Of a stretch of DNA of 64,000 nucleotides, positions 31,313 to 60,883 are shown in pieces. A program made the translations under genes and the position numbers. Positions within the stretch are counted from its first letter, which is position 1, and each line of letters starts with the position of its first letter. This DNA comes from an uncultured Mycobacterium sp. (lineage in GTDB: Bacteria; Actinomycetota; Actinomycetes; Mycobacteriales; Mycobacteriaceae), in NCBI GenBank assembly GCA_964629725.1, contig CAZVST010000001.1, forward strand, positions 23,197 through 87,196, in the 5' to 3' direction. The notes beneath the pieces are model-generated. The model saw only the letters and a list, made by a program, of their open reading frames with translations, was not told the DNA's origin and searched no databases.

Positions 31313-31548
31313 CCGCGAAAAACCCTTGGCACATCGGCCCGTACGCGAGTACGGTCACCGGTACGCAAGGAAGGAGGTGGTCCGAGAATTTGAGTACTTT
31401 TTGGACATGTGAGGTGGCTGCCCGCTATTAGCACCAGGTGCCGGAATCACCCCGCGCGTGTGTGCGCCGGCGAATTCCAGGCAGCTACCCGGCCCCCGAG
31501 CTCCCGGTCCGTCCAACCAGGATCAACGGCTCGGGGGCCGTTCCATCT

Positions 31549-46205: not shown

Positions 46206-47200
46206 GCGGAGGCTCCCGCCAGTGCCGCCTTGGCGGCGCGCTTCTCGGCGAGCTTCGCGTCGCGGTCGAGCTTGCGCTCCTTGGCTTCTTCGAACTTCAC
46301 GCAGGTCTCCTCGAGTTCCTCGATGAGCTTGCCGAGTTCGTCGCGCAACCGGGCGCCCTCGCCGGTGAAGTCGTCGCGCTCGAAGATCCGCCACTTCTTC
46401 AGGACCGGCATGACCACGTCCTCGAGGTGGATCCGCGGGTCGTACACCCCGCCCATCGCGATGATGACGGCCTTGCGCCGGAACTCCGGAACCGTGTAAC
46501 CGGGCATCTTGAAGTTCTTCAGGATGCGGTACACGGACTGCATCGCCATATTGGGCGCGATGTCCAAGCCCGCGGCACTGACGTCGCGGTAGAAGATCAT
46601 GTGCAGGTTCTCGTCGTTGGAGATGCGCGCCAGCAGCTGTTCGGCCACCGGGTCGTTGCAGGCCTTGCCGGTGTTGCGGTGCGAGACGCGAGTGGCCAGC
46701 TCCTGGAAGCTGACGTACATCACCGAGTCGAACAGGTTGTCGGCGAACAGATCGCCCTGCTGATTCTGGCCCGGCGAGAACCCGCGGGTCATCTGCTCCA
46801 CCCGCAGTTCCTCGAGCTCAATGGGATCGCAGTTGCGGGTGACGACCAGGTAGTCACGGATGGAGATGCCGTGCCGGTTCTCCTCGGCGGTCCACCGGTT
46901 GACCCAGTAGCCCCACGGGCCTTCCATCGAGAAGTTCATCGCGATCTCGCGGTGGTAGGCGGGCAGGTTGTCCTCGGTCAGCAGGTTTTGCACCAGGGCT
47001 GTCCGGGCCACCTCGGAGAGCTTGGCCTGGTCGGGATCCCAGTCCTGGCCGCCCAGGGCGTAGTAGTTCTTGCCCTCTTTCCAGGGAATGTAGTCGTGCG
47101 GGTTCCACTCTTTGAACATCGACATATGGCGGTTGATCAGCTTCTCCGCGACGGGCTCAAGCTCGCGCAGCAGGTCGACATTGCTGAACTCTTGGGACAT
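46202..47200 (-). CDS. desA1: Acyl-ACP desaturase
   Basis: TEDNLP, WTAEENRH, FQELAT and DENLH di-iron motifs. Confidence 0.95.
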   Translation of the reverse strand: MSQEFSNVDLLRELEPVAEKLINRHMSMFKEWNPHDYIPWKEGKNYYALGGQDWDPDQAKLSEVARTALVQNLLTEDNLPAYHREIAMNFSMEGPWGYWVNRWTAEENRHGISIRDYLVVTRNCDPIELEELRVEQMTRGFSPGQNQQGDLFADNLFDSVMYVSFQELATRVSHRNTGKACNDPVAEQLLARISNDENLHMIFYRDVSAAGLDIAPNMAMQSVYRILKNFKMPGYTVPEFRRKAVIIAMGGVYDPRIHLEDVVMPVLKKWRIFERDDFTGEGARLRDELGKLIEELEETCVKFEEAKERKLDRDAKLAEKRAAKAALAGASA

Positions 47201-48816: not shown

Positions 48817-48890
48817 GGCCAGGTAGCTCAGTTGGTACGAGCGTCCGCCTGAAAAGCGGAAGGTCGCCGGTTCGATCCCGGCCCTGGCCA
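48817..48890 (+). tRNA. tRNA-Phe(GAA), integration target
   Basis: GGCCAGG/CCTGGCC acceptor; CTGAAAA loop; 3' half duplicated at 58864. Confidence 0.98.
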
Positions 48891-48891
48891 C
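48854..48891 (+). repeat. attL core
   Basis: AAGCGGAAGGTCGCCGGTTCGATCCCGGCCCTGGCCAC. Confidence 0.95.
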
Positions 48892-48934
48892 GTCAGAGGC
48901 CATATTTGTCGCCTCGCAACCCTCCACTTGACGT

Positions 48935-50119
48935 TTATTCGTCGTTTATGCCGACCGCCTTGTCGAGGACGTCGGCCACCTCGGTATGCACCGCACCGCG
49001 ACTCATGTAGACATCCTGGGTCATCGACGGCCGCGCGTGGCCCAGCTGGTCGGCACCGATCCGGGCCGACAGACCCGAATCGTCGATCAGCGTGGCCACG
49101 GTCTTGCGGAAGCTGTGCGAGGAGACCTCGGGTAGCCCAAGACCCTCGCGGACCTCGCGCCACTGCTTGCCGAAGTTGTCAGGGTCTCGCAGCGTGCCCG
49201 CCGACGACGGGAAGATCACCCCGACGCTGTTCGGTCGCTGAACGCCGGCCTTCCGGCGGTGGAGCGCATCCACCGCGAACTGAGGTAGCGGTACCGACCG
49301 GGCCGCGCCGCCCTTCGTCGTGTCCTGCCGGATCAGGCCCTTGCCCTTGATCCTGACCACCGACCCGTTGATCGACAACACCTTCCCGTCGAGGTCGACG
49401 TCCTCCCATCTCAGCGCCAACAGTTCCGAGCGCCGTAGGCCGGTGGCGGCCAGGAGGATCACCGGGTCGGCCAGATCCTTCTGAGCGCACTCCTTCGACG
49501 CACCGACCGCCGTCACCAGCGTCCGCACCTGATCGACCCCGAGGGCTGGCGCACCCTTCGCCCTCTTTTCGGCCTTCCTGCGCCGCCTGGTGCCCAATTC
49601 CCTCACCGGGTTAGCCGCGATAGCTCCCGCGAGTACCGCATCAGTCATAACGGCGTTCAGAGCCACTTTGGTATGCCGCTCCCGAGTGGCACCGTGGTCC
49701 CGCCGGATACCGCGAAGAATCTCGTCGAGAAGGCCCGGAGTCGCCTCACTGACCCTCACGTCGGCCATCCGCGCCCGGACCGCGTCGAGGGTCGCCTCAT
49801 AGGTGTCGACTGATTTGGGAGCTAGTTCGCCGTCATCCCGGCATCGGTTGATGTACCGGGTCAGCAGATCCCCGAGAGTGGTCGTGCCGGTGATGCTGCC
49901 TGACCCCGGTGGACGCCTGGCCGTGATCGCATCACGTAAGACCCCCTCGGCGCGCGCGCCGTACTCGTCGACCACACCGGCCGGCGTCATCCGTTCCAGT
50001 CGCCGCGTCACCCCGTCGAGGTCGCGGAACCGGCACCGGGCCACCCAGACCCCGCCGCCGAGGCTGATCCGGGTGATCTTGCCGTGCTGGCCGATCCGCA
50101 TGGGAGGCCTACCCGCCAT
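48935..50119 (-). CDS. int: Tyrosine integrase
   Basis: TGLRRSELLAL (R), HSFRKT (HxxR), LGHARPSMTQDVY (H, Y); phiRv2-like N-terminus MAGRPPMRIGQHG. Confidence 0.96.
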   Translation of the reverse strand: MAGRPPMRIGQHGKITRISLGGGVWVARCRFRDLDGVTRRLERMTPAGVVDEYGARAEGVLRDAITARRPPGSGSITGTTTLGDLLTRYINRCRDDGELAPKSVDTYEATLDAVRARMADVRVSEATPGLLDEILRGIRRDHGATRERHTKVALNAVMTDAVLAGAIAANPVRELGTRRRRKAEKRAKGAPALGVDQVRTLVTAVGASKECAQKDLADPVILLAATGLRRSELLALRWEDVDLDGKVLSINGSVVRIKGKGLIRQDTTKGGAARSVPLPQFAVDALHRRKAGVQRPNSVGVIFPSSAGTLRDPDNFGKQWREVREGLGLPEVSSHSFRKTVATLIDDSGLSARIGADQLGHARPSMTQDVYMSRGAVHTEVADVLDKAVGINDE

Positions 50120-50744
50120 CGTGACCACCATCCGGTTGCACGCCGAAGATCTCCCACGCAATCTCTCGACGCGGTGCTTTCTCCTCGTTGATCTGACGTT
50201 TCAGATCTTCGGCCGTAGCCACCAGCCCCGCGATCTCGTCCTCTGGGGCCTTTCCGCGCCTTAGCCCTATCTCGCGCAAGACATCCTTGCGGCGGGTATC
50301 CAACTCGCGCACACGCCGTGCGACCCGCAGCGGCCGAAGCTGCTCCCAATAGTTCATCGCCGCGAGCATTGGTATCTGGATCAGTCGGCCATCATCGTCA
50401 CCAGGGACCGGCGACACGCTGTCCAATTCGCCCGAAAACCATTCCACCGCAGCAATTTTCGGTAGCTCCATCGACGGAGTGATGTGAACCCATTCCCCCA
50501 GGTAAGGCCCCGGATAGATCAGGGCAATCGGGGCCGTTTCCAGCGCCGCCGCCAGGAGGACCAGGTCGGTAACAGTGATCGACTTGCGTCGTCCGGTTTC
50601 GATCTCGGAGATCGTCGAACGCGAGACCCGGTGGCCGAGCTCCTCGGTTCGGTCGGAGAGCCACTGCCCTGACCGGGCTCCTCGCAAGCGCTTGATCTCG
50701 CTGGCGATCCGCGCTGTGACTTCGTCCGGCCAAGAATCCGACAT
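50109..50744 (-). CDS. XRE-family repressor, leaderless
   Basis: HTH SGQWLSDRTEELGHRVSRSTISEIETGRR; 3' end overlaps the integrase start. Confidence 0.88.
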   Translation of the reverse strand: MSDSWPDEVTARIASEIKRLRGARSGQWLSDRTEELGHRVSRSTISEIETGRRKSITVTDLVLLAAALETAPIALIYPGPYLGEWVHITPSMELPKIAAVEWFSGELDSVSPVPGDDDGRLIQIPMLAAMNYWEQLRPLRVARRVRELDTRRKDVLREIGLRRGKAPEDEIAGLVATAEDLKRQINEEKAPRREIAWEIFGVQPDGGHDGG

Positions 50745-50855
50745 ACCGACGAGATTAGCGCGATCCTTGCGGGATTCCGAAGGACATGCCTAGACTGACC
50801 GGGAATCAGTCAGAAATGGCACTGTAGCGCCGGAAATCCGAAAGAGAGCCGATTT
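50745..50855. promoter_or_regulatory. Divergent genetic switch with three operator-like 10-mers
   Basis: CGGGATTCCG 50770, CGGGAATCAG 50800, CGGAAATCCG 50831; -10 TAATCT (minus) and TAGACT (plus, 50791). Confidence 0.6.
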
Positions 50856-51062
50856 ATGCCCACCACGCCACAAACCCCAGACGAGTGCTGGATGACGCGC
50901 CCGGAGGTCGCCGAGCGTCTCCGGGTACCGGACAAGACCCTCGCCCAGTGGGCAAGTCAGGGCAAAGGGCCGAAGTACGCCCGATTCGGCCGGCACTGCC
51001 GCTACCGGATCTCAGATGTCATCGCTTGGGAGAACGCGCAATTCTCCGGTGATGCGGCCTGA
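50856..51062 (+). CDS. Excisionase/AlpA-like HTH protein
   Basis: MTRPEVAERLRVPDKTLAQWASQGKGPKYARFGRHCRYR (HTH_17-like). Confidence 0.88.
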   Translation: MPTTPQTPDECWMTRPEVAERLRVPDKTLAQWASQGKGPKYARFGRHCRYRISDVIAWENAQFSGDAA

Positions 51063-51448
51063 TGATGACGACCCCCGGAAAGAGCGAAGGCCCCGAGGTA
51101 GCCGCCTCGGAGCCTTCAGAACCCGCCGCCCCTCAGAAGAACGAACAGGAGAACCCCATCATGACACAGCGGTCCCACAATCCATTCCCGGTCGACCCGA
51201 CAGGCCCGCTCACAATGGGCACGATTCCTGACGCCGACCTCGACCGGCTGATCGCCGCCACCATCGCGCCGATAGAACGGCTGCGGTCGGCAGTCGACGA
51301 CGTCGACCCAGCACAGTTGACGGCAAGGGACGTGCTCGCCCTGTTCGACTTGATCCAAGCGGCGTACGAGTCGGAATCGGCATTCGGCAAGGCAATTCGC
51401 CAGGCGGAAGGCAACAGGAAGAAGGCCGTTGCCGAGGTGGTCCAGTGA
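51062..51448 (+). CDS. Hypothetical protein (start may be 51161)
   Basis: Coupled overlaps on both sides; helical C-terminal region. Confidence 0.65.
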   Translation: MMTTPGKSEGPEVAASEPSEPAAPQKNEQENPIMTQRSHNPFPVDPTGPLTMGTIPDADLDRLIAATIAPIERLRSAVDDVDPAQLTARDVLALFDLIQAAYESESAFGKAIRQAEGNRKKAVAEVVQ

Positions 51449-51738
51449 ACTCGCGGCAAGTGGCCTGGGAGCCGGTCTACCGGTTCCTCGCACCAGACCT
51501 CGGCGATCACAACATAATCCCTGGCACGCCGGCCTGGTGTGACCTCGACGACCACGATCACCGCAAGAGGGCGGCCTGTAACTGGCCGGTGGTCTGGTGG
51601 TCGGTCGCCGAGGATGCGCGCCAGACCGCGATTGCCGAGGCCTCGCGCGAGATCAGCACGGCCGCCGACTGGCCGGCGGTGGCACGCCGTATGCAGCGCC
51701 GGAAGTCGGGCGTCTACATCCCCAGGGCGGTCGCGTGA
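51445..51738 (+). CDS. DUF2742 protein (phiRv1/phiRv2 Rv2656c-like)
   Basis: PGTPAWCDLDD and AEASREISTAADW motifs. Confidence 0.85.
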   Translation: MNSRQVAWEPVYRFLAPDLGDHNIIPGTPAWCDLDDHDHRKRAACNWPVVWWSVAEDARQTAIAEASREISTAADWPAVARRMQRRKSGVYIPRAVA

Positions 51739-51899
51739 TGGACGCCTACACCAGGGGATACCGCCGCGCCGCGCGTCACCTTCTGGCCGCTGGTCTGCTG
51801 CCCGCGCCGTGCCCGGAAGGCCTGCGGTTCATGTGGACAGCCAGCCCCGACGACCGCGCCATCGTGCGACATATCAGCGAAAGGTGGGTCACCCGTTGA
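51738..51899 (+). CDS. Small hypothetical protein, 53 aa
   Basis: TGATG and TTGA overlaps with its neighbours. Confidence 0.65.
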   Translation: MDAYTRGYRRAARHLLAAGLLPAPCPEGLRFMWTASPDDRAIVRHISERWVTR

Positions 51900-53266
51900 C
51901 CGACAACGGATTCTGGGACGCTCGACCGACCTTGCGCCGCGTGCAGACCCAGGCCCGCGCGCGCAGGGTCGGACCCTGGTCGCTTCTCACTGTGCAGCTG
52001 GTCCGCGCTATCGCTTCGATCCCGCCGAACGTCGGCCTTCCTCCGCTCGTCGGCGCCAGGGCCTCGCTCAACATGTTCGCCAATCTCGTCGGCCACAGCG
52101 CCGGAGGCAAGGGCGTCTCCGAGGCGCTGGGAGCCGAGGCAATCACCATCCACGGCGCCGGCCCGATCCGGGTCGTCCCACTGGGCTCCGGGGAAGGCGT
52201 CGCCCGGACGTTCATCATCGACGACGAGAACGACGACCACGGCGCGACGGCTGCGATCTTCTCGGCGTCGGAGGCCGACACCCTGACCGCACTGGCCGCG
52301 AGGCAGGGGAGTACCACCTCCTCGGAGCTTCGCAAGGCGTGGTCCGGGGAGACCCTCGGCCACGGCAACGCGGGCAAGGACTCCCGCCGGATCGTCGAGG
52401 CCCACACGTATCGAATGGGCCTCATCGTCGGGATGCAACACCTTCGCTCCGGACCGGTCCTGGCCGCGGTCGACGGCGGGCTCCCGCAACGGTTCTCCTG
52501 GGCTCCGACATGGGACCGGACCGCCCCTATCGTCGCCCCGGATTGGCCCGGAAACGTCATCGTGACGATGCCGAACTGGGGGACCGCTCCGGTAGACCTC
52601 GCAGTGCCGGTCTCGGTCGCCCGTCAGATCGACGAGCGCCGACTCGCCGCGCTACATGGGGAGGCGGTCGACCCGCTCGACGGCCACGCGGATCTCGTCA
52701 GGCTCAAGTTGGCCGCCGCCCTGATGGCCCTCGACGGCCGGCACGAACTGACCGAGGAGGACTGGCAGCTTTCCGGAGTCCTGACGTCGGTCAGCGCCAT
52801 GACCAGACAGGAGTGTCAGGACGCCCTGGTCGAACAATCCCGCGCGATCAACCGCTCCCGCGCCCACGCCGTCGCCGACCGCGAGGAGATCATCGACGAC
52901 CGCAAGGCCCAGCGGGCACGCGAGGCGATCCTTCGCAAGATCGACAGCAAGGGACAGCAAACAAAGAACGAACTCCGGATGGCCATGAAGTCGACCATCC
53001 GCGACTACCTCGATCCCGCCATCGACGACCTGATCGAAGCCCGTCAGATCGCCATATCGCCAGCACTGCGCGGGACTCACCGGGTACACGTGTACCACCG
53101 GTACATGCCCTCCGAACCGCCCTTGAACAGCAGTGATGCCGAATGTACCGAGAGTCCACATGTACCCACGCCGCTAGATCTCGCACGACACCGAGAACCC
53201 CGGCAACGGCAACGCAGCCGCGGCAAGCACCGCACCGGACAGCAAACACAGGATGCCTCGGCATGA
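51896..53266 (+). CDS. Putative replication P-loop ATPase/helicase (DUF3987/YfjI-like)
   Basis: Walker A-like LVGHSAGGKG, SELRKAWSGE, GGLPQRF; C-terminal winged-helix-like segment; TTG start inferred. Confidence 0.65.
   Translation: MTDNGFWDARPTLRRVQTQARARRVGPWSLLTVQLVRAIASIPPNVGLPPLVGARASLNMFANLVGHSAGGKGVSEALGAEAITIHGAGPIRVVPLGSGEGVARTFIIDDENDDHGATAAIFSASEADTLTALAARQGSTTSSELRKAWSGETLGHGNAGKDSRRIVEAHTYRMGLIVGMQHLRSGPVLAAVDGGLPQRFSWAPTWDRTAPIVAPDWPGNVIVTMPNWGTAPVDLAVPVSVARQIDERRLAALHGEAVDPLDGHADLVRLKLAAALMALDGRHELTEEDWQLSGVLTSVSAMTRQECQDALVEQSRAINRSRAHAVADREEIIDDRKAQRAREAILRKIDSKGQQTKNELRMAMKSTIRDYLDPAIDDLIEARQIAISPALRGTHRVHVYHRYMPSEPPLNSSDAECTESPHVPTPLDLARHREPRQRQRSRGKHRTGQQTQDASA
53083..53166. 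repeat. Iteron-like GGTACA/TGTACC array, candidate replication origin
   Basis: GGTACA at 53083 and 53100; TGTACC at 53091, 53144 and 53161; 14-bp palindrome GGTACACGTGTACC. Confidence 0.6.
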
Positions 53267-53628
53267 CCCGCCGCGTCATCTTCCCCGACCCCGAAATCTG
53301 GAAGGCCAACAACACCGTGAACAAGATCCCGATTCACCGCCCACTCACCGCCCAGGAGTGCCACCTGTTGCGCATCCTCGCCGTTGCAGTCGTGGCGCAT
53401 CAGGGCAATTGCCCGCACGAGATCGCCGCCCAGGCGCTCGACCAGTACGCAGCCGAGGGGACCATCAGCATCGACGCCGACGACACCGACGCCAACCTCC
53501 GGATCGACGGCAAGGTGATCGTCCATGCCACTCGCGACTGGCTGGCCTTCCATGCCGAACACCCGGAGGCCATCGACGCCAACCGGCACGGCCACGTCAT
53601 CCGGCGCAACGAGGAAGACAAGGAGTGA
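53263..53628 (+). CDS. phiRv1 Rv1579c-like protein
   Basis: IHRPLT...ALDQYAAEGT...VHATRDWLAFHA resembles the recalled Rv1579c sequence. Confidence 0.75.
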   Translation: MTRRVIFPDPEIWKANNTVNKIPIHRPLTAQECHLLRILAVAVVAHQGNCPHEIAAQALDQYAAEGTISIDADDTDANLRIDGKVIVHATRDWLAFHAEHPEAIDANRHGHVIRRNEEDKE

Positions 53629-54005
53629 CACTCCGACCATGCCTCGTCTGCGGTGAAGCCGCCGAGGGTCCGCGCTGCGAGGCCCATACCCTCCGCAAGC
53701 CGGCCGCCGCCGCACGCGGGTACGACGCGAACTGGACACGACTGTCCAAGCGCGCCAGACGTTTACAGCCGTTCTGCACTGACTGCGGCGCGGCCGAGGA
53801 TCTGCAAGCCGACCACACGCCGGAGGCCTGGGAGCGCAAGGCGGCTGGCCTGGCGATCAGGCTGGCCGACGTCGACGTCGTCTGTGGACCGTGCAACCGG
53901 CGCCGTGGTGCTGCTCGCGGCAACTCTGTGACCAGGGGAGAGGCCCCTAGCGCACGGCCAAACGACCCCCTGTCCAGTCAAAGTTTGAGAGTGAGACCGG
54001 CGTGA
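53625..54005 (+). CDS. HNH endonuclease of the packaging module
   Basis: CLVCG..RCEAH, RGYDANW, CTDC..ADH..CGPCN. Confidence 0.85.
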   Translation: MTLRPCLVCGEAAEGPRCEAHTLRKPAAAARGYDANWTRLSKRARRLQPFCTDCGAAEDLQADHTPEAWERKAAGLAIRLADVDVVCGPCNRRRGAARGNSVTRGEAPSARPNDPLSSQSLRVRPA

Positions 54006-55456
54006 AGTCCGGCGCGAAGGGCACCGTCAAGGCCGACCCGCTCGACTTCACTGGCTGGCCGACCGGCCGCGCGGCGCGTCGGGAGCGGTTCATCGCTGAG
54101 TACCTGATTACTCCGAAGGGCGTGGGAGCGCGGGAGCCTTTCGCGCTCCGGCCCTTCCAGCGCGAGATCCTCCGCGGAGCCTTCGCTCCGGGCGTGCGGA
54201 CCGCGCTGGTGTCGATCCCGCGCGGCAATGGCAAGTCGGCTCTCGCTGCCGCTCTGGCGCTGGCAGAACTGTTCGTCGGCCCGGATTCTGCCGAGGTTCT
54301 GACCGTGGCCTCCGACATGCGCCAGGCCATGATCGTGCTGCGGATGGCGCGCCGGATGGTCGAACTCAACCCGGAGCTTGCCGACCGTGTTCACGTCTAC
54401 GCCGACAAGCTGTATCTCCCGGAGAACGATTCGGTTCTCCTGCCTCTGCCGGCTGAACCCGGAGCCCTTCACGGCCACGACCCGAGCCTCCTGGTCGTCG
54501 ACGAGCTCCACGTCGTGACCGAGGAAGTCTGGGAGGCGGTGACCTCGGTCGGCGGTAAGCGACCCGAATCCCTCACGTTGGCGATCTCGACTCCGGCCGC
54601 CAGCCCCGACTCAGTGATGTGGCGACTCGTCGAACACGGCCGCCGAGGAGACGACCCGGCGTTCTACCTCCGCGAGTACGCCGCCCCGGAAGGATGTGCC
54701 GTCGACGACCGGAAGGCCTGGCGCATCGGTAATCCCGCGATGGCCTGTCGGCCGCCGTTCCTGGCCGCGGATGGACTGGAGGCGGTACGCCGCACGATCT
54801 CCGAGGCCCGCTTTCGCCAGCTTCGCCTAGGCCAGTGGGTGACTGGCGTCGAGTCCTGGCTCCCCTGGGGAGCGTGGGCCGACTGCGAGGTCGACCGGCC
54901 GGTCAGCCCGCGTGAACGGATCGTGATGGCGTTCGACGGTTCGGCGTCCGGCGACTCCACGGCGTTGGTCGGCTGCACCCTCGACGGACACCTGTTCGTG
55001 ATCGGCCTCTGGGAGAACCCCGGAGATCCGCGCTGGCGAGTCCCGCGCGACGACGTCGACCGCGCCGTCGACATCGCGTTCGCGAAATACGACGTCGCCG
55101 AACTCGCCTGTGACCCGTGGGGCTGGCGCTCTGAGATCGAAGCGTGGGCCAAGCGCCACGGGGAGCGCCGCGTCGTCGAGTGGAACACCGCGAACGCCGC
55201 CCGGATGGCCCCGGCAACCGATCGCCTCTATCAGGCCGTCGTAACCCATGCGGCCTCTCATGACGGCGATGCCAGCCTGGCCGCACACGTCGCGCACTGC
55301 ATCGCCAAACGAACTCCTTTGGGGGATCTCGTCTCCAAGGACAAGCGCGGATCTCCGCGCAAGATCGACGCCGCCGTCGCCGCCATCGTGGCCTACGACC
55401 GCGCCGCTTTCCACCATCAACGCAACCGCAAACGTGTAAGGAGCTTCGCATCGTGA
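54002..55456 (+). CDS. terL: Terminase large subunit
   Basis: PRGNGKS Walker A, LVVDELH Walker B, ISTP, nuclease FDGS and KIDAAVA. Confidence 0.95.
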   Translation: MKSGAKGTVKADPLDFTGWPTGRAARRERFIAEYLITPKGVGAREPFALRPFQREILRGAFAPGVRTALVSIPRGNGKSALAAALALAELFVGPDSAEVLTVASDMRQAMIVLRMARRMVELNPELADRVHVYADKLYLPENDSVLLPLPAEPGALHGHDPSLLVVDELHVVTEEVWEAVTSVGGKRPESLTLAISTPAASPDSVMWRLVEHGRRGDDPAFYLREYAAPEGCAVDDRKAWRIGNPAMACRPPFLAADGLEAVRRTISEARFRQLRLGQWVTGVESWLPWGAWADCEVDRPVSPRERIVMAFDGSASGDSTALVGCTLDGHLFVIGLWENPGDPRWRVPRDDVDRAVDIAFAKYDVAELACDPWGWRSEIEAWAKRHGERRVVEWNTANAARMAPATDRLYQAVVTHAASHDGDASLAAHVAHCIAKRTPLGDLVSKDKRGSPRKIDAAVAAIVAYDRAAFHHQRNRKRVRSFAS

Positions 55457-56748
55457 CCCTTCTGCAAGATCTTCTCCAGCGCCTCGACCAGCCGGCCGCC
55501 CGCTACGCCGAACTGGACCGCTACTACACCGGCACACAACCGCTGGCCTTCCTGTCCCCGGAGGCAAAGACCGCTCTGGGCAACAGATTCGGCGTGATGG
55601 CGTCGAACCTTCCCCGGCTCGCCGTCACCGCCCTGGCCGAACGGCTCCGCATCACCGGATTCTCCGGAGACCCGGATCTCTGGGCCGACTGGACTCGTAA
55701 CGACCTCGACCAGACCTCCGGCGTCGCTCACCGCGAGGCCCTGCTCCTCGGCGATTCCTACGCGATCGTCTGGGCCGACCAGTTTGGCCGCCCGAAGGTG
55801 ACCGTCGAATCGGCGAAACAGGTTGCGGTCCTGACTGATCCGGGTTCCCGCGAGGTCTACGCCGCCATCAAGCGATGGGAAGATCCGAACACGAACACGA
55901 CCCACGCCGTGATGTACCTCCGCGACGTCATCGTGAAGCTCCGGGCCGACCAGCGCGGCGCGGTCGCCAACGGATTCAAGACCGTCGAGGAGATCGCCAA
56001 CCCTCTCGGAGTCGTCCCGGTCGTCAACCTCCGCAACACCGACCGGATAATCGGCGACTGGGGATTCAGCGAAGTCGACGACCTCAAGCCGTTGGTCGAC
56101 GCCCTGAACAAGTCGCTGGCCGACATGATGGTCACCTCCGAATACGTTGGCCGCCCGCGCCGTTGGGCCACCGGCATCGAACTGACAGAGGAGCCGGTCC
56201 TCGACGCCAACGGAAATCCGGTCCTCGACGGCGACGGCCAGCCGGTGATGACCGAGGTCAACCCGATCCCCGAGGGCCACCGGGCGATGATCTCGGAGAA
56301 CTCCGACGCCAAGTTCGGACAGTTGGCCGCCGCCGACCTCGCCGGATATGAGGCCAGCGTCCGGGTCATCCTCGGCCAGGTCATGGCCGTCAGCACTTTG
56401 CCCGCACATTACGTCGGGATCTTCACCGACAACCCCGCATCGGCTGATGCGATGCGCGCCGCCGAGGCCTCCCTCACTGCCCGCGCCGAGGCTCGACAGG
56501 CCACGTTCGGCCGGTCCTGGGAACAGGTCGCCCGACTAATGATCGCGGTCCGCGACGGCCGCGATCCGGGCCTCGTCGACCCCGTCCGGGTCCAGTGGGC
56601 CGACGCAGCGACCCGGAGCGTCGCCCAGGAGGCCGACGCCGTGGTGAAGCTGTACCAGGCGGGCCTCCTGCCCCAGGCCTACGCCCTGGCCAAGCTGGGT
56701 TACTCCGAGGACGAGATCGCAACTGTGGCGGCCAGCAATGCGGCTTAG
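55453..56748 (+). CDS. Portal protein (SPP1 gp6-like)
   Basis: YYTGTQP; position after TerL; NPASADA...EASL; 431 aa. Confidence 0.9.
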   Translation: MTLLQDLLQRLDQPAARYAELDRYYTGTQPLAFLSPEAKTALGNRFGVMASNLPRLAVTALAERLRITGFSGDPDLWADWTRNDLDQTSGVAHREALLLGDSYAIVWADQFGRPKVTVESAKQVAVLTDPGSREVYAAIKRWEDPNTNTTHAVMYLRDVIVKLRADQRGAVANGFKTVEEIANPLGVVPVVNLRNTDRIIGDWGFSEVDDLKPLVDALNKSLADMMVTSEYVGRPRRWATGIELTEEPVLDANGNPVLDGDGQPVMTEVNPIPEGHRAMISENSDAKFGQLAAADLAGYEASVRVILGQVMAVSTLPAHYVGIFTDNPASADAMRAAEASLTARAEARQATFGRSWEQVARLMIAVRDGRDPGLVDPVRVQWADAATRSVAQEADAVVKLYQAGLLPQAYALAKLGYSEDEIATVAASNAA

Positions 56749-56923
56749 CGCACGCGATATGCAAGTCGTCATCAGCACGCGCCCAGAAGCATCCCGGCCG
56801 GTCCGGCTCCGGGCCGCAAGTCTTGTATTCGCACTCACTGAGACCGAGGCCTTGGAATTGGCCAACAACCTCGCCGACGCCGTCGACGAGATCCACGCAC
56901 ACGAAAGGCAACCGCAATCATGA
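56738..56923 (+). CDS. Small hypothetical protein between portal and scaffold
   Basis: Overlaps the portal stop; ATGA overlap with the scaffold start. Confidence 0.6.
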   Translation: MRLSARDMQVVISTRPEASRPVRLRAASLVFALTETEALELANNLADAVDEIHAHERQPQS

Positions 56924-57354
56924 CCGCCGCCATCACCGCCCAGGACGCGCCGGAACCGACCGACCAGAGCCCGACCCCCGAGGTCGACGCCGAGGAGGGT
57001 ACGCCCGAATCGCCTGCCCCCGACGATCCCGACACCTTCCCCCGCGAGGTCGTCGAGAAGCTGCGACAGGAGAACGGCCGCTATCGCCAGCGCGCCGCGC
57101 ACGCCGACACTCTGGCCCAACGACTGCACACCGAATTGGTCAGGGCCACCGGCAAGTTGGCCGACCCGACCGACTTGCCGTTCGACGAGGGCCACATCGA
57201 CGACCCCGAGGCCCTGGCCGCCGCCGTCGACGACCTCCTCGATCGCAAGCCCCACCTTGCCAGCCGCAAACCGTCCGGTGACATCGGTCAGGGCCAGCGC
57301 GGCCCTGCCGCCGGGGGATTCTCACTGCTGGGTCTCCTCAAGGAGCGCACCTAA
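56920..57354 (+). CDS. Capsid scaffolding protein
   Basis: Acidic Pro-rich N-terminus, DTFPREVVEKLRQENGRYR coiled coil, hydrophobic C-terminal tip; precedes capsid. Confidence 0.72.
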   Translation: MTAAITAQDAPEPTDQSPTPEVDAEEGTPESPAPDDPDTFPREVVEKLRQENGRYRQRAAHADTLAQRLHTELVRATGKLADPTDLPFDEGHIDDPEALAAAVDDLLDRKPHLASRKPSGDIGQGQRGPAAGGFSLLGLLKERT

Positions 57355-57454
57355 CCGATAGACTGAGGCGATCCGGGCCTGGCGCCCAACACGATTGACG
57401 TCCTGGCGACGTGTCGAATCCCCACCATCCGACACCAACCGTTAGGACTCAATC

Positions 57455-58309
57455 GTGGCCATCGAAGTCACCTCCGGAAATTCCACCCTGATTCAGAGCC
57501 AGGTCGCCGACCTCCTGGTCCAGCCGCTCGAGCAAGCCTCAACGTTCCTGGCCGCCGGCCCGACCATCCTCGACTCCTCCTCCCCGGTTCGTGTCCCGCG
57601 AATCGCCAACGGCGTCACCGCCGGATTCGTCGCCGAAGGCGCACAGATCAGCGACGGCGACGTCGCGTTCGACGAGGTCACCCTCCTGCCCTCGACGCTC
57701 AAGGGCCTCAAGGTCCTGGTCAAGCTGAGTAACGAACTCATCCGGACCTCGGTCGTCGGACTGGAAGCGGTCCTGCGGACCCGCCTGGTGACCGACGTCG
57801 CCAACGCGCTCGACGCGGCCCTCTGGGATGGCGCTGGCACGTCGAACACCGTGAAGGGCATCCTCCGGGCCTCTGGCATCGCGACCGGCACCCTCGACCT
57901 GACCGACCCCGACTCGCTGATCGACGGGCTTGCCACCGCCCAGGGCAACAAGGTCACGCCGACTCACTGGGTCATGACGGCCGCGAGCTTCGCCGCCATC
58001 CGCAAGGTGAAGGTTGGGACCGGCGATGCCCGATACGTGATGGACTCCAGCACGATTCAGAACGGCACCGAGCTCCGCCTCCTTGGCCTGCCGGTCGTCA
58101 TCACGGATAACATCCCGGCCGTGTCGACCAAGAACCGCGTCGCCCTGGTCGACTTCTCCAAGGTGGTCGTCGCCCGCGACGTCGACGCCGAGGTGAAGAT
58201 CCTCGATCAGACCTGGGGAGATTATGACTCCATCGGTATCCGGGTCGTCTCCCGCTGGGATACCGCGCTGCTTCAGGCGAAGGCCGTGACCCTGCTGACC
58301 GAGGCGTAA
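57455..58309 (+). CDS. Major capsid protein (HK97 fold, no delta domain), 284 aa
   Basis: AGFVAEGAQI, KLSNELIR, LDAALWDG.G, LLGLPVVIT, ALVDFS. Confidence 0.93.
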   Translation: MAIEVTSGNSTLIQSQVADLLVQPLEQASTFLAAGPTILDSSSPVRVPRIANGVTAGFVAEGAQISDGDVAFDEVTLLPSTLKGLKVLVKLSNELIRTSVVGLEAVLRTRLVTDVANALDAALWDGAGTSNTVKGILRASGIATGTLDLTDPDSLIDGLATAQGNKVTPTHWVMTAASFAAIRKVKVGTGDARYVMDSSTIQNGTELRLLGLPVVITDNIPAVSTKNRVALVDFSKVVVARDVDAEVKILDQTWGDYDSIGIRVVSRWDTALLQAKAVTLLTEA

Positions 58310-58312
58310 GCC

Positions 58313-58624
58313 GTGCCGGTCTCCAGCACCGACGTCGAGGCCCTCCTCGACACGCCGAGCGCTGCTGTCGACGCGGCCATCGCCCAGGTGACCGTGATGG
58401 CCCGCGCCTACACGCGCGGACGTGGATTCTTCGCCGGGGACGACCCGAACGATGAGATCAGCGCCGTGATCACCACGGCGGCCGCACGCCTTGCCGCCAA
58501 CGGCCGGCAGACCATCGGACGGGAGAAGGTCGACGACGTCGAGCGCGAGGTCCGGTCATCGTTCCTCGGCTGGACCCTGGCCGAACTCGCGGTCCTCAAC
58601 CGATACCGGGTGACGGCCATGTGA
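58313..58624 (+). CDS. Head-tail adaptor/connector
   Basis: ARAYTRGRGF, AVITTAAARL..N, GWTLAELAVLNRYR; follows capsid. Confidence 0.78.
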   Translation: MPVSSTDVEALLDTPSAAVDAAIAQVTVMARAYTRGRGFFAGDDPNDEISAVITTAAARLAANGRQTIGREKVDDVEREVRSSFLGWTLAELAVLNRYRVTAM

Positions 58625-58863
58625 GCCCGGTGGCCCGGTGAATCACGGAGTCTTTCGTACGCTCCTCCGTAGCCTGCGCCGACGGCATTGGAGACCAGCG
58701 CAGCCACCGGGCCACCGCCCCCACAATCCGACGCTTATTCGTCGTTAATACCCGCGACACGCCGAGAATGGTTGCGAATTGACGAGAGTCAAGAGCGCGC
58801 GAAAGGCATTGCCCTAGAGAATCTTTGGCAAGCGTTGCGGCGCGTCGGGAACGCTCAACCCAT

Positions 58864-58903
58864 AAGCGGAAGGTCGCCGGTTCGATCCTGGCCCTGGCCA
58901 CCA
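58864..58903 (+). repeat. attR core: duplicated tRNA-Phe 3' half with CCA
   Basis: 37/38 identity to attL (C/T at 48879/58889), followed by CA. Confidence 0.95.
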
Positions 58904-58907
58904 TCCT

Positions 58908-60092
58908 TCAGGCTTCGCTGCGTGCCGCCTTCACCAGTCCGCCGCCGACGATCAATCGTTGGATCTCGCTTGTGCCCTCATAGAGCCTCAGCAGGCGCAC
59001 GTCGCGGTAGATGCGCTCGACCGGCACCCCGCGCATGTATCCCGTCCCGCCGTGAATCTGGACGGCGGTGTCGGCTACCCGTCCGGCCATCTCGGTGCAG
59101 AACAACTTGGCCGCCGACGGGGCGATGCGCCGGTCCTCCCCGCTGAGCCACAGCCGCGCGGCGTCGCGGACCAGCGCCCGCCCCGCCATCACCCCGGTCT
59201 GCTGGTCGGCCAGCATGGCCTGGACGAGTTGGAAGGTTCCGACGGCCTGCCCGCCCTGGGTGGCCGTCGCGGCAAAACTCACCGACTCGTCCAGCGCACG
59301 TTGAGCGGCACCCACCGCTAGCGCGGCAATGTGGATACGCCCCCGGGCCAGCGAGGTCAGTGCCGCCCGATATCCGATGTCCTCGCTGCCCCCGATCAGT
59401 GCGTCGGGTCCGACCCGGACGTCGGTGAAGTACACGTCGGAGGTCCACGCTCCTTCCTGGCCCATCTTGGCGTCCTTCACGCCCACCTGGACTCCGGGGG
59501 CGTCGGCCGGCACCAGGAACACCGCGATGCCGGCGCCGTTCTCGTCGGCGGGTCGGGTTCGGGCGAAGACGACGAGGAGGTCGGCCACGGGTGCATTGGT
59601 GATCCAGCGCTTCTGGCCGGAGATCACCCAGGCCCCTCCGTCTCCGTCGCCGTCACGGATGGCTCTGGTGCGCAGGCCCGACGGATTCGACCCGGCACCC
59701 GGTTCGGTCAGGGCGAAGGAGGCCACCACCTCACCCGTCGCCATCTGCTCCAGCCAGCGCGCCTTCTGCTCGTCGGTGCCGAAGCCCACGAGCACCTGGC
59801 CGGCGATGCCGTTGTTGGTACCGAACATCGACCGCACCGCCAGCGACGTGTAACCCAACTCCAGCGCGAGTTCGACGTCCTGGGTGATGTCGAGGCCCAG
59901 GCCGCCCCACTCCTGCGGGATCGCATATCCGAACAGCCCCATGTGCTTGGCCTGCTCGCGGATATCGTCGGGAACGGCGTCGCCCTCGGCGATCTCGGTT
60001 TCCCGCGGGACCACCACCGACCGAACGAACTGCCGGGTCTGGGTGAGAATGTCCCGGAAATCGTCGGCGCTGACCGCAGGCTCGGGTGTCAT
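58908..60092 (-). CDS. Acyl-CoA dehydrogenase
   Basis: FALTEPGAGS, GQKRWITN and LYEGTSEIQR motifs. Confidence 0.95.
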   Translation of the reverse strand: MTPEPAVSADDFRDILTQTRQFVRSVVVPRETEIAEGDAVPDDIREQAKHMGLFGYAIPQEWGGLGLDITQDVELALELGYTSLAVRSMFGTNNGIAGQVLVGFGTDEQKARWLEQMATGEVVASFALTEPGAGSNPSGLRTRAIRDGDGDGGAWVISGQKRWITNAPVADLLVVFARTRPADENGAGIAVFLVPADAPGVQVGVKDAKMGQEGAWTSDVYFTDVRVGPDALIGGSEDIGYRAALTSLARGRIHIAALAVGAAQRALDESVSFAATATQGGQAVGTFQLVQAMLADQQTGVMAGRALVRDAARLWLSGEDRRIAPSAAKLFCTEMAGRVADTAVQIHGGTGYMRGVPVERIYRDVRLLRLYEGTSEIQRLIVGGGLVKAARSEA

Positions 60093-60142
60093 GACGTCAT
60101 CAAATACGATGACGCCACGCACTCGATCAGGAGGGTGATCGG

Positions 60143-60883
60143 ATGGCATTGCTGGCAGGTAGGACCGCGGTCGTCACCGGTGGAGCCCAGGGCTTGGGCT
60201 ATGCCATCGCCGAGCAGTTCATCGCCGAGGGAGCCCGGGTCATCCTCGGTGACCTGGACCTCGACCGCACCCGGGCCGCCGCCGACGCGCTCGGCGGAGC
60301 CGACGTCGCGCGTGCGGTTCGGTGCGACGTCACATCCACGGCCGAGGTCGACGGCCTCGTCGCTGCTGCCCTCGATGAGTTCGGCAGCCTAGACGTCATG
60401 GTCAACAACGCCGGCATCACCCGCGACGCAACGTTGCGGAAGATGACCGAGGAACAGTTCGACGAGGTGATCTCCGTGCACCTCAAGGGAACCTGGAACG
60501 GCACCCGCGCGGCGGCGGCCGTCATGCGCGAGCACGGCCGCGGGGCGATCATCAATATGTCGTCCATCTCCGGCAAGGTCGGACTGGTCGGCCAGACGAA
60601 CTACTCGGCTGCCAAGGCCGGTATCGTCGGGCTGACCAAGGCCGCCGCCAAAGAATTGGCTCACCTGGGCGTGCGGGTCAACGCCATCCAGCCGGGACTC
60701 ATTCGCTCTGCGATGACAGAGGCTATGCCGCAACGCATTTGGGACGCCAAGCTGGCCGAGGTGCCGATGGGCCGGGCCGGTGAACCAAGCGAAGTGGCGA
60801 CGGTGGCCCTGTTCCTGGCCTCGGACCTGTCGTCGTACATGACCGGGACGGTGCTGGAAGTCACTGGCGGGCGGCACATCTAG
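60143..60883 (+). CDS. fabG: 3-oxoacyl-ACP/CoA reductase
   Basis: [16 protein letters not shown] and NYSAAK motifs. Confidence 0.9.

Follow-up and report, generated by a model that had tools for sequence, protein, structure and literature searches.

The locus studied here raises the question of what a 10-kb segment with an integrase and phage head genes of its own, and with no tail or lysis genes, represents at the 3' end of a bacterial tRNA gene. The segment lies in a stretch of 64,000 nucleotides from an uncultured Mycobacterium sp. (GCA_964629725.1, contig CAZVST010000001.1, positions 23,197-87,196 of the forward strand), which we refer to as the window and to whose first letter all coordinates below relate. 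We conclude that this segment is probably a capsid-forming phage satellite, integrative and intact, one of a family of 10-11-kb elements, and that its tails are most likely borrowed from helper phages. At the level of direct observation, it is an intact member of a family that is widespread in Mycobacteriaceae and is found also in Tsukamurella.

The integration target is a tRNA-Phe(GAA) gene (48817-48891, + strand; ARAGORN and Rfam RF00005), which closes a tRNA cluster of Lys (- strand), Glu, Asp and Phe. A direct-repeat search placed a 38-nt attL core at 48854-48891 (+), coinciding with the 3' end of the tRNA-Phe gene, and a 38-nt attR core at 58864-58901 (+), with a start-to-start spacing of 10,010 bp. 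The two copies are identical at 37 of 38 positions, a match far above chance expectation in 13 kb, and the occupation of the tRNA-Phe 3' end by the element is an observation in its own right. The single mismatch, C at 48879 in attL and T at 58889 in attR, affects the T-stem, where the functional tRNA copy retains a G-C pair and the displaced attR copy would give G-U. The same core borders the related loci L010 and L101. On the right flank, a host acyl-CoA dehydrogenase gene starts 7 nt past attR; a second, tandem integrase considered at 58908-60149 was rejected, as this open reading frame (ORF) encodes the dehydrogenase.

Because the genome has a G+C content of about 66%, raw ORF lists are noisy. 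The gene model was thus fixed by codon-position GC and cross-checked against independent gene calls on an identical sequence, the Logan assembly L064 (SRR10912416). Both models agree on 15 intact genes between the att repeats, and their products were annotated by Pfam, PHROG and NCBIfam profile scans. An earlier note on this DNA had described the att repeats in tRNA-Phe, the integrase, a repressor/xis switch and an operon of the order HNH-TerL-portal-orf-scaffold-capsid-adaptor, and the repeat search, the profile scans and the L064 calls bear out all of these. Its gene list was correct for the right half of the element, whereas five genes between Xis and HNH had been omitted, namely orf128, the DUF2742 gene, orf53, a gene for a 456-aa replication protein and orf121.

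The right half of the element is a compact head operon, with all genes on the + strand. It begins with an HNH endonuclease (126 aa; 53625-54005; phrog_144, E=6.6e-10), whose homologues in relatives match PF01844 and whose gene overlaps the start of the one for the large terminase subunit TerL (484 aa; 54002-55456; PF03354, PF20441). There follow a portal of the SPP1 gp6 family (431 aa; 55453-56748; PF05133, E=2.6e-37; phrog_104, E=2e-104), the small gene orf61 (56738-56923), and a scaffolding-like protein (144 aa; 56920-57354) with weak matches to phrog_4708 and phrog_233 (head scaffolding). The next gene encodes a major capsid protein (MCP) of HK97 fold (284 aa; 57455-58309; PF05065, E=3e-36; TIGR01554, E=2.7e-42), which aligns only to positions 109-384 of TIGR01554 and therefore lacks the N-terminal delta domain. 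The last gene (58313-58624) encodes a 103-aa protein and ends 239 bp before attR. Neighbouring genes of the operon overlap by 4-11 nt, except that the MCP gene is preceded by 100 nt, and the last gene by 3 nt, of intergenic DNA.

As the 103-aa protein had no family match, it was modelled from an alignment of 63 sequences. The AlphaFold2 (AF2) model reached a pLDDT of 85.6, and its top Foldseek match was gp9 of mycobacteriophage Douge (8zdj_a, probability 1.0, TMq 0.64), followed by YqbG, the SaPI1 neck protein and HK97 gp6. A sequence profile compared with PDB again placed gp9 first, weakly (E=0.12). Based on this model, the protein is read as a predicted head-tail adaptor of the HK97 gp6/Douge gp9 type.

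To see how this arrangement is distributed, homologues were collected. The MCP has 1278 database homologues, of which the top 120 show 86-96% identity, and all named hosts among these 120 are Mycobacterium, Mycolicibacterium or Mycolicibacter. A scan of one genome per species gave 50 loci. In nearly every sufficiently long one, tblastn recovered HNH-TerL-portal-(orf)-scaffold-MCP-adaptor in the same order, with a left arm of integrase, regulator and replication genes that is mosaic across relatives. Flanking direct repeats of 21-52 nt were found at 26 loci, which together with the element in the window make up 27 delimited elements of Mycobacteriaceae. These measure 10,048-11,269 bp (median 10,763), are spread over at least 13 tRNA genes, into which they have integrated in either orientation, and always end with the adaptor gene or with one further small ORF. 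Across all 50 loci, the head module likewise closes with the adaptor gene or one small ORF beyond it, and att or host housekeeping genes follow within about 0.1-2.1 kb; where no att could be called, those sampled downstream ORFs that had a Pfam match were GlnA, GlnE, ArgRS, Dus, LytR and SDR. Not one of the 50 has tail genes beyond the adaptor. Two or three distinct copies coexist in several genomes, e.g. three in M. rhodesiae JS60, and the family includes M. canettii (L068-L070), M. kansasii and M. riyadhense. The only PLSDB match is a distant integrated copy on a 250-kb Tsukamurella plasmid, and no episomal copy from an isolate was found in that database.

Some observations on individual family members can be added. 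On plasmid 5 of Tsukamurella tyrosinosolvens (L205, 11751-12908), a second integrase and a block of hypothetical genes directly follow the element, an arrangement suggestive of integrative elements in tandem. At L016, L042, L045 and L007 (MFD loci from metagenome-assembled genomes, MAGs) and at L048 (another MAG), some of the matches to the integrase, portal, TerL or MCP genes were broken up or incomplete; L047/L046 of M. austroafricanum likewise gave fragmented or partial gene matches, and the copy in the window is intact. These members are either truly decayed or reflect long-read indel errors or contig breaks.

The family also bears on the first rival explanation, that the element is a decaying remnant of a full-size prophage which has lost its tail and lysis genes by deletion. 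Such elements were indeed labelled 'prophage remnants' by Fan et al. 2014, and a few relatives (L016, L042, L045, L048), with fragmented or partial integrase, portal or MCP, do look degraded. However, several of the degraded relatives come from MAGs and may carry assembly errors, and the 27 delimited elements, despite different integrases and tRNA targets, end at the same terminal gene within 10.05-11.27 kb. The earlier note had named tail genes in relatives as the sign of a deletion remnant; their absence from every locus favours its interpretation.

The head genes were also compared with 50,697 phage records, including well over a thousand mycobacteriophage records. The best phage identities were 37% for the portal (Arthrobacter phages), 33% for TerL (phiC31/TG1 group) and 27% for the MCP, whose best matches lie at 24-27%; for the adaptor there was no match in these records. 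None of the head genes has a close counterpart there, and the module forms a lineage private to the family. Because neither the adaptor nor the MCP has a close homologue among the phage records, no helper can be nominated.

Evidence on activity came from the relatives. L060 and L061 are identical closed circles of 10,038 bp from two runs, circularly permuted and with a 30-nt k-mer overlap, and L051 is a closed circle of 10,355 bp with a 141-nt overlap. In L054-L056 the integrase gene lies about 320 bp after the adaptor gene, i.e. an attP junction. Two metagenome contigs with the same tRNA-Phe core are of attP type, and L101 is a complete second tRNA-Phe element. Altogether, the circles and attP junctions speak well, if not conclusively, for excision in relatives.

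Selection could be assessed against the closest whole-element relative, L010, which occupies the same site between host flanks that are 83-87% identical. All 13 genes compared are intact and free of frameshifts, and their ratios of nonsynonymous to synonymous divergence (dN/dS) range from 0.09 to 0.37. Purifying selection thus acts on all 13 genes, and the element is intact, as had been claimed before. The integrase, at 95% amino acid identity, gives a dN/dS of 0.09, and the replication protein is only 49% identical to its L010 counterpart. Synonymous divergence (dS) is 0.34-0.58 in the integrase and head module, above 0.87 in the regulators and replication genes, and 0.65-0.81 in the host flanks. 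As dS differs between modules, the element has been recombining and not passively co-diverging with its host. With dN/dS well below 1, with circular forms in existence and with no sequenced phage carrying these head genes, the view of a decaying prophage is already largely refuted, and we regard it as highly improbable.

Several points nevertheless weigh against the interpretation as a capsid-forming satellite. The evidence from circles is not final because a tandem array could mimic a circle, and in the source assembly of the window the element was assembled only in its integrated form. For the small terminase subunit TerS, no ORF gave a Pfam, PHROG or NCBIfam match, and no cos site was identifiable in the element. 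No publication was found that describes a helper phage, a particle or induction for any member of the family. Finally, domestication would likewise account for an element that resides at one site in two related hosts and is under purifying selection.

This last possibility would be a helper-independent particle system that the host maintains for its own use, along the lines of gene transfer agents or of tailless capsids that package DNA. It agrees with the shared tRNA-Phe site between flanks of such similarity, with the purifying selection on the element genes, and with the lack of an identifiable TerS, by which packaging might not be sequence-specific. In contrast, the element retains its own integrase, excision switch and replication genes, its relatives occupy at least 13 tRNA sites with several distinct copies per genome, and unit-length circles are seen. 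Moreover, the left arm is a mosaic with module swaps, and dS is lower in the head genes than in the host flanks, so that simple co-divergence does not apply. Domestication consequently appears unlikely.

Somewhat less unlikely, albeit still improbable, is a satellite that needs more than tails, in which the helper would give TerS or packaging specificity and perhaps a stopper or other head-completion proteins. With the same low probability, the element would then be closer to a classical phage-inducible chromosomal island (PICI) with extra head genes than to a capsid-forming PICI (cf-PICI). In line with this, not only TerS is missing: no ORF contains a protease domain that could represent a head maturation protease according to the profile scans, and there is no ORF between adaptor and attR for a second head-tail connector, leaving one neck protein in the element. 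About 10 relatives have an extra ORF of some 100-120 aa after the adaptor (c13, c17), for which there was no Pfam, PHROG or PDB-profile match and which might be a stopper; in Tsukamurella, the extra gene after the adaptor is annotated 'head-tail adaptor'. SatelliteFinder, too, files mycobacterial islands under PICI. On the other hand, selection acts on every one of the genes that the element has for TerL, HNH, portal, scaffold and MCP, and the variable small protein encoded upstream of HNH (orf121, c12 or c21, unrelated to each other in different elements) could be an unrecognised TerS; alternatively, a helper may supply that subunit. Concerning cos, conservation of the 240 nt that follow the adaptor gene is limited to L010, and the sole noncoding stretch conserved family-wide is the 100-nt gap between scaffold and MCP genes.

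The capsid-forming satellite thus remains our preferred interpretation, in which small heads, dependence on helper tails, induction and cos packaging are deduced from gene content. Its life cycle could proceed as follows. The tyrosine integrase, with conserved arm-type sites, placed the element at tRNA-Phe, where the Xre-type repressor would hold the rightward operon off. Derepression would follow a signal, most likely a helper-phage protein; this is likelier than a RecA-dependent signal because the repressor has no peptidase domain for self-cleavage. The HTH_17 protein and the integrase would then release the 10,010-bp circle, to be copied, judging from homology, by the DUF2742 protein, orf53 and the primase-like protein. 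Portal, scaffold and the delta-less HK97-fold MCP would form a small procapsid with no protease involved. HNH and TerL would cut and load unit-length DNA in a cos-type reaction, and the 10.0-11.3-kb size range of the family would be the footprint of head capacity. In the end, the adaptor would cap the portal, and the helper would give the remaining neck proteins, the tail and lysis. Among the 15 genes of the element, the Pfam, PHROG and NCBIfam scans found no tail and no lysis or holin gene.

Turning to the left arm, the tyrosine integrase (388 aa; 48935-50101, - strand) matches PF00589 (E=1.9e-20), has legible R...HxxR...Y residues and corresponds to an L064 call; its ORF is open as far as 50161. 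Next to it lies the gene of an Xre/CI-type repressor-like protein (211 aa; 50109-50744, -) with a helix-turn-helix (HTH) domain of the HTH_3 type (PF01381, PF13560), which is transcribed divergently from the rightward operon. The 111-bp intergenic region between them (50745-50855) is, from its position only, the presumed switch with promoters and operators; a scan for sigma-70 consensus promoters and terminators gave nothing above shuffled background. The rightward genes, all on the + strand, start with an HTH_17 protein similar to Xis/AlpA/MerR (68 aa; 50856-51062; PF12728, E=2.4e-11). It is followed by orf128 (51062-51448), which shows a coding-type GC pattern and an L064 call and has no Pfam, PHROG or NCBIfam match, and by the DUF2742 protein (97 aa; 51445-51738; PF10888, E=2e-23). 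A DUF2742 gene sits in this slot in 7 of the 27 delimited elements, the one in the window included, and at the same position in L051, L060 and L191. The small orf53 (51738-51899) has an L064 call and homologous ORFs in 4 elements, and its ends overlap the stop of the preceding gene and the start of the next. The latter encodes the replication protein (456 aa; 51896-53266; phrog_28894, E=1.2e-54; phrog_11515, E=5.5e-49), which resembles the C-terminal part of phage DNA polymerase/primases of the DUF3631 type; a close homologue in L191 matches PF12307 (DUF3631), and other relatives have AAA_25 proteins in this slot.

Of the left-arm genes, orf121 (53263-53628, +) deserves separate mention. A profile search against PDB identified it as a homologue of 6LG3 (E=1.6e-26), and Foldseek with the structure predicted by AF2 gave 6LG3 at a TM score of 0.94 and 47% identity. 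Its depositors named this entry a 'PhiRv1 phage protein' and a bacterial toxin of M. tuberculosis. The homologues have an invariant motif R[DE]WLAFHAEHPEAID, and the model shows a weak MarR-like winged-helix resemblance (probability at most 0.47). There was no match in BFVD or in the 50,697 phage records, and in PDB only 6LG3 and the weak MarR-like resemblance. In a satellite, orf121 could be an interference or host-takeover factor, and not the toxin of a toxin-antitoxin pair. The earlier note had stated that the element has no tail, lysis or cargo genes; this holds for tail and lysis, while 'no cargo' is uncertain because of the homology of orf121 to a deposited toxin.

Variation was also noted inside the head module. 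Seven of the 27 delimited elements, with that of the window counted, have homologues of orf61 (tblastn identity 42-72%). In 12 relatives (L002, L005, L011, L012, L014, L015, L018, L022, L034, L039, L043, L049) it is replaced, between portal and scaffold, by c7, an unrelated but conserved protein of about 200 aa with the motif CxxC...HxGCNC; c7 has no match in Pfam, PHROG or PDB profiles and may be a minor head protein, conceivably of the MuF type. Of the 27 elements, 24 retain the scaffold-like gene, which directly precedes the MCP gene. At L017 (6299-10001, one MAG copy), the scaffold and MCP genes lie about 3.7 kb from each other instead of 0.5 kb, which suggests an insertion inside the head module, possibly an insertion sequence element.

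Regarding the att region, a 20-nt motif, GACGYTTATTCGTCGTTWAT, is present twice in the element, at 48930-48949 within an arm-type repeat on the P' side (48930-48952, +) and at 58730-58749 within one on the P side (58730-58752, +). The motif stands at these two fixed positions, about 40 nt inside attL and 112-136 nt before attR, in three elements (the one in the window, L010 and L101), and is present additionally in L112, L096 and L150. Together with the Arm-DNA-bind_4 matches of integrases in relatives, these repeats are presumed to be integrase arm-binding sites. The tRNA-Phe 3' end is also found at 11 metagenome loci (L085, L086, L099, L118, L120, L136, L140, L144, L147, L148, L172), where unrelated tyrosine integrases, 28-34% identical to the one in the window, lie about 190 nt downstream of the tRNA gene. 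In Actinomycetota, this tRNA-Phe gene appears to serve as a hotspot for integration in general. Among 120 metagenome contigs carrying the tRNA-Phe core, there was no empty attB of the same species. Elsewhere in the window, two Rfam matches at gathering score were obtained, the actinobacterial small RNA Ms_IGR-5 (31363-31546, +; 164 bits) and the small RNA ASdes TB (46815-46882, +; 44.8 bits), and these matches confirm a mycobacterial chromosome.

As for its meaning, the element is a further well-preserved example of a catalogued family and not a new kind. The interpretation given in the earlier note holds in every part that sequence is able to test. The novelty it implied was overrated, as the exact architecture had been published in 2014 (PMC3986857) and 2023 (PMC10654092, PMC10085698). 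The additions made here concern the family as a whole, namely its size window and spread of tRNA targets, the circles and attP junctions, the purifying selection, the private head lineage, the adaptor fold and the phiRv link. A joint reading, which we hold to be about evenly balanced between right and wrong, would combine these: an independent actinobacterial origin of capsid-forming satellites, with a head lineage found in no sequenced phage (at most 37% identity), exactly 10-11 kb of DNA packaged by HNH and TerL with no recognisable TerS or protease, members that are active today as judged by circles and attP junctions in environmental reads, and an early module in common with phiRv1 and phiRv2, by which the M. 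tuberculosis elements would be reduced cousins of a tail-stealing lineage. If helper tails are truly taken, satellite particles would make up a large part of the mycobacterial mobilome that has so far been ignored, with many genomes holding two or three copies and with relatives of the tubercle bacillus in the family. This would bear on horizontal transfer between mycobacterial species, on interference with therapeutic mycobacteriophages, and on where phiRv1 and phiRv2 come from. With their narrow size window and private head genes, these elements offer a clean system for studying the sizing of 10-kb heads with a scaffold and no protease, and the same system suits the question of cos packaging with no recognisable TerS.

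It remains to compare the element with known systems. Two classes were ruled out by gene content: an encapsulin, as TerL and portal are present, and an actinomycete integrative and conjugative element or other conjugative element, as there are no transfer genes. The closest published cases are phiBN44_1 and phiMCAN_1 of M. canettii, phiMmcs_1/phiMkms_1 and phiMycsm_1, described as 'prophage-like elements' or remnants (Fan et al. 2014, PMC3986857). Elements of the phiBN44_1 type measure 10.9-11.2 kb and have the same order of Int, XRE, primase-like protein, HNH, terminase, portal, scaffold and MCP; the phiBN44_1 region is our locus L070, which was found by adaptor homology (P0203, 58% identity). 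They differ in integrase, att site, host and replication module, and the M. canettii MCP has 372 aa compared with 284 aa here. The earlier papers on them did not include size constraint, circular forms, selection or the identification of the adaptor. In a re-reading by the Hatfull laboratory, mycobacterial islands with an integrase and a capsid gene, some of them having a terminase and a scaffold gene as well, were listed as candidate PICIs whose induction, according to the authors, had not been shown (PMC10654092). SatelliteFinder has likewise reported mycobacterial PICIs, phiRv1 and phiRv2 among them (PMC10085698).

In the case of phiRv1 and phiRv2 of M. tuberculosis, the likeness lies in an integrative element of about 10 kb with integrase and Xis, a DUF2742 protein, a homologue of orf121 (6LG3), a primase-like protein at the same position and capsid genes at the far end. 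By published annotation, the phiRv elements have a prohead protease and a long capsid protein and lack TerL and portal, and phiRv1 uses a serine integrase. Therefore, the head module in the window is not the phiRv one. A classical PICI of the SaPI/EcCI type has no MCP, portal or TerL of its own, whereas the element in the window has all three.

The EPIPs of Mycolicibacterium aichiense (preprint, PMC12822802) resemble the element in size (about 11 kb), in their Mycobacteriaceae host and in scaffold, MCP and head-tail adaptor. They differ in their serine integrase, TerS, stopper and tape-measure protein, and no TerL or portal is reported for them; they were obtained as free particles, which induce their helper prophage, and their small heads were seen by electron microscopy. 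Among Streptomyces satellites, MulchRoom and MiniFlayer (PMC10690885) also have TerL, portal, scaffold, MCP, head-tail adaptor and HNH, and MulchRoom has a tyrosine integrase and uses helper-type tails. In contrast to our element, they have TerS, direct terminal repeats of about 1 kb, low GC, virulent helpers and no obvious replicase; for 'predicted Actinomycetota PICIs', only a portal similarity was reported in that study.

Finally, cf-PICIs take only tails from their helpers (PMC10690885 and PMC10085698, citing Alqurainy 2023). By gene content, 8 of the 11 core components of the SatelliteFinder cfPICI model (PMC10085698) are present here, i.e. integrase with att sites, regulator (HTH_17 with divergent HTH_3), primase/replicase, HNH, TerL, portal, MCP and head-tail adaptor, with no tail or holin genes; TerS, protease and second connector are the three not seen. 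Like cf-PICIs of the EcCIEDL933 type, the element has an arm of integrase, regulator and replication genes followed by HNH, TerL, portal, MCP and adaptor. Canonical cf-PICIs are somewhat larger than the element in the window. The differences that the earlier note had listed, an SPP1-type portal, a separate scaffold, no protease, no recognisable TerS and one neck protein, are all upheld, to which the Actinomycetota host can be added. What the two have in common is the lack of tail and holin genes, head genes distinct from those of known phages, and an expected dependence on helper tails only.

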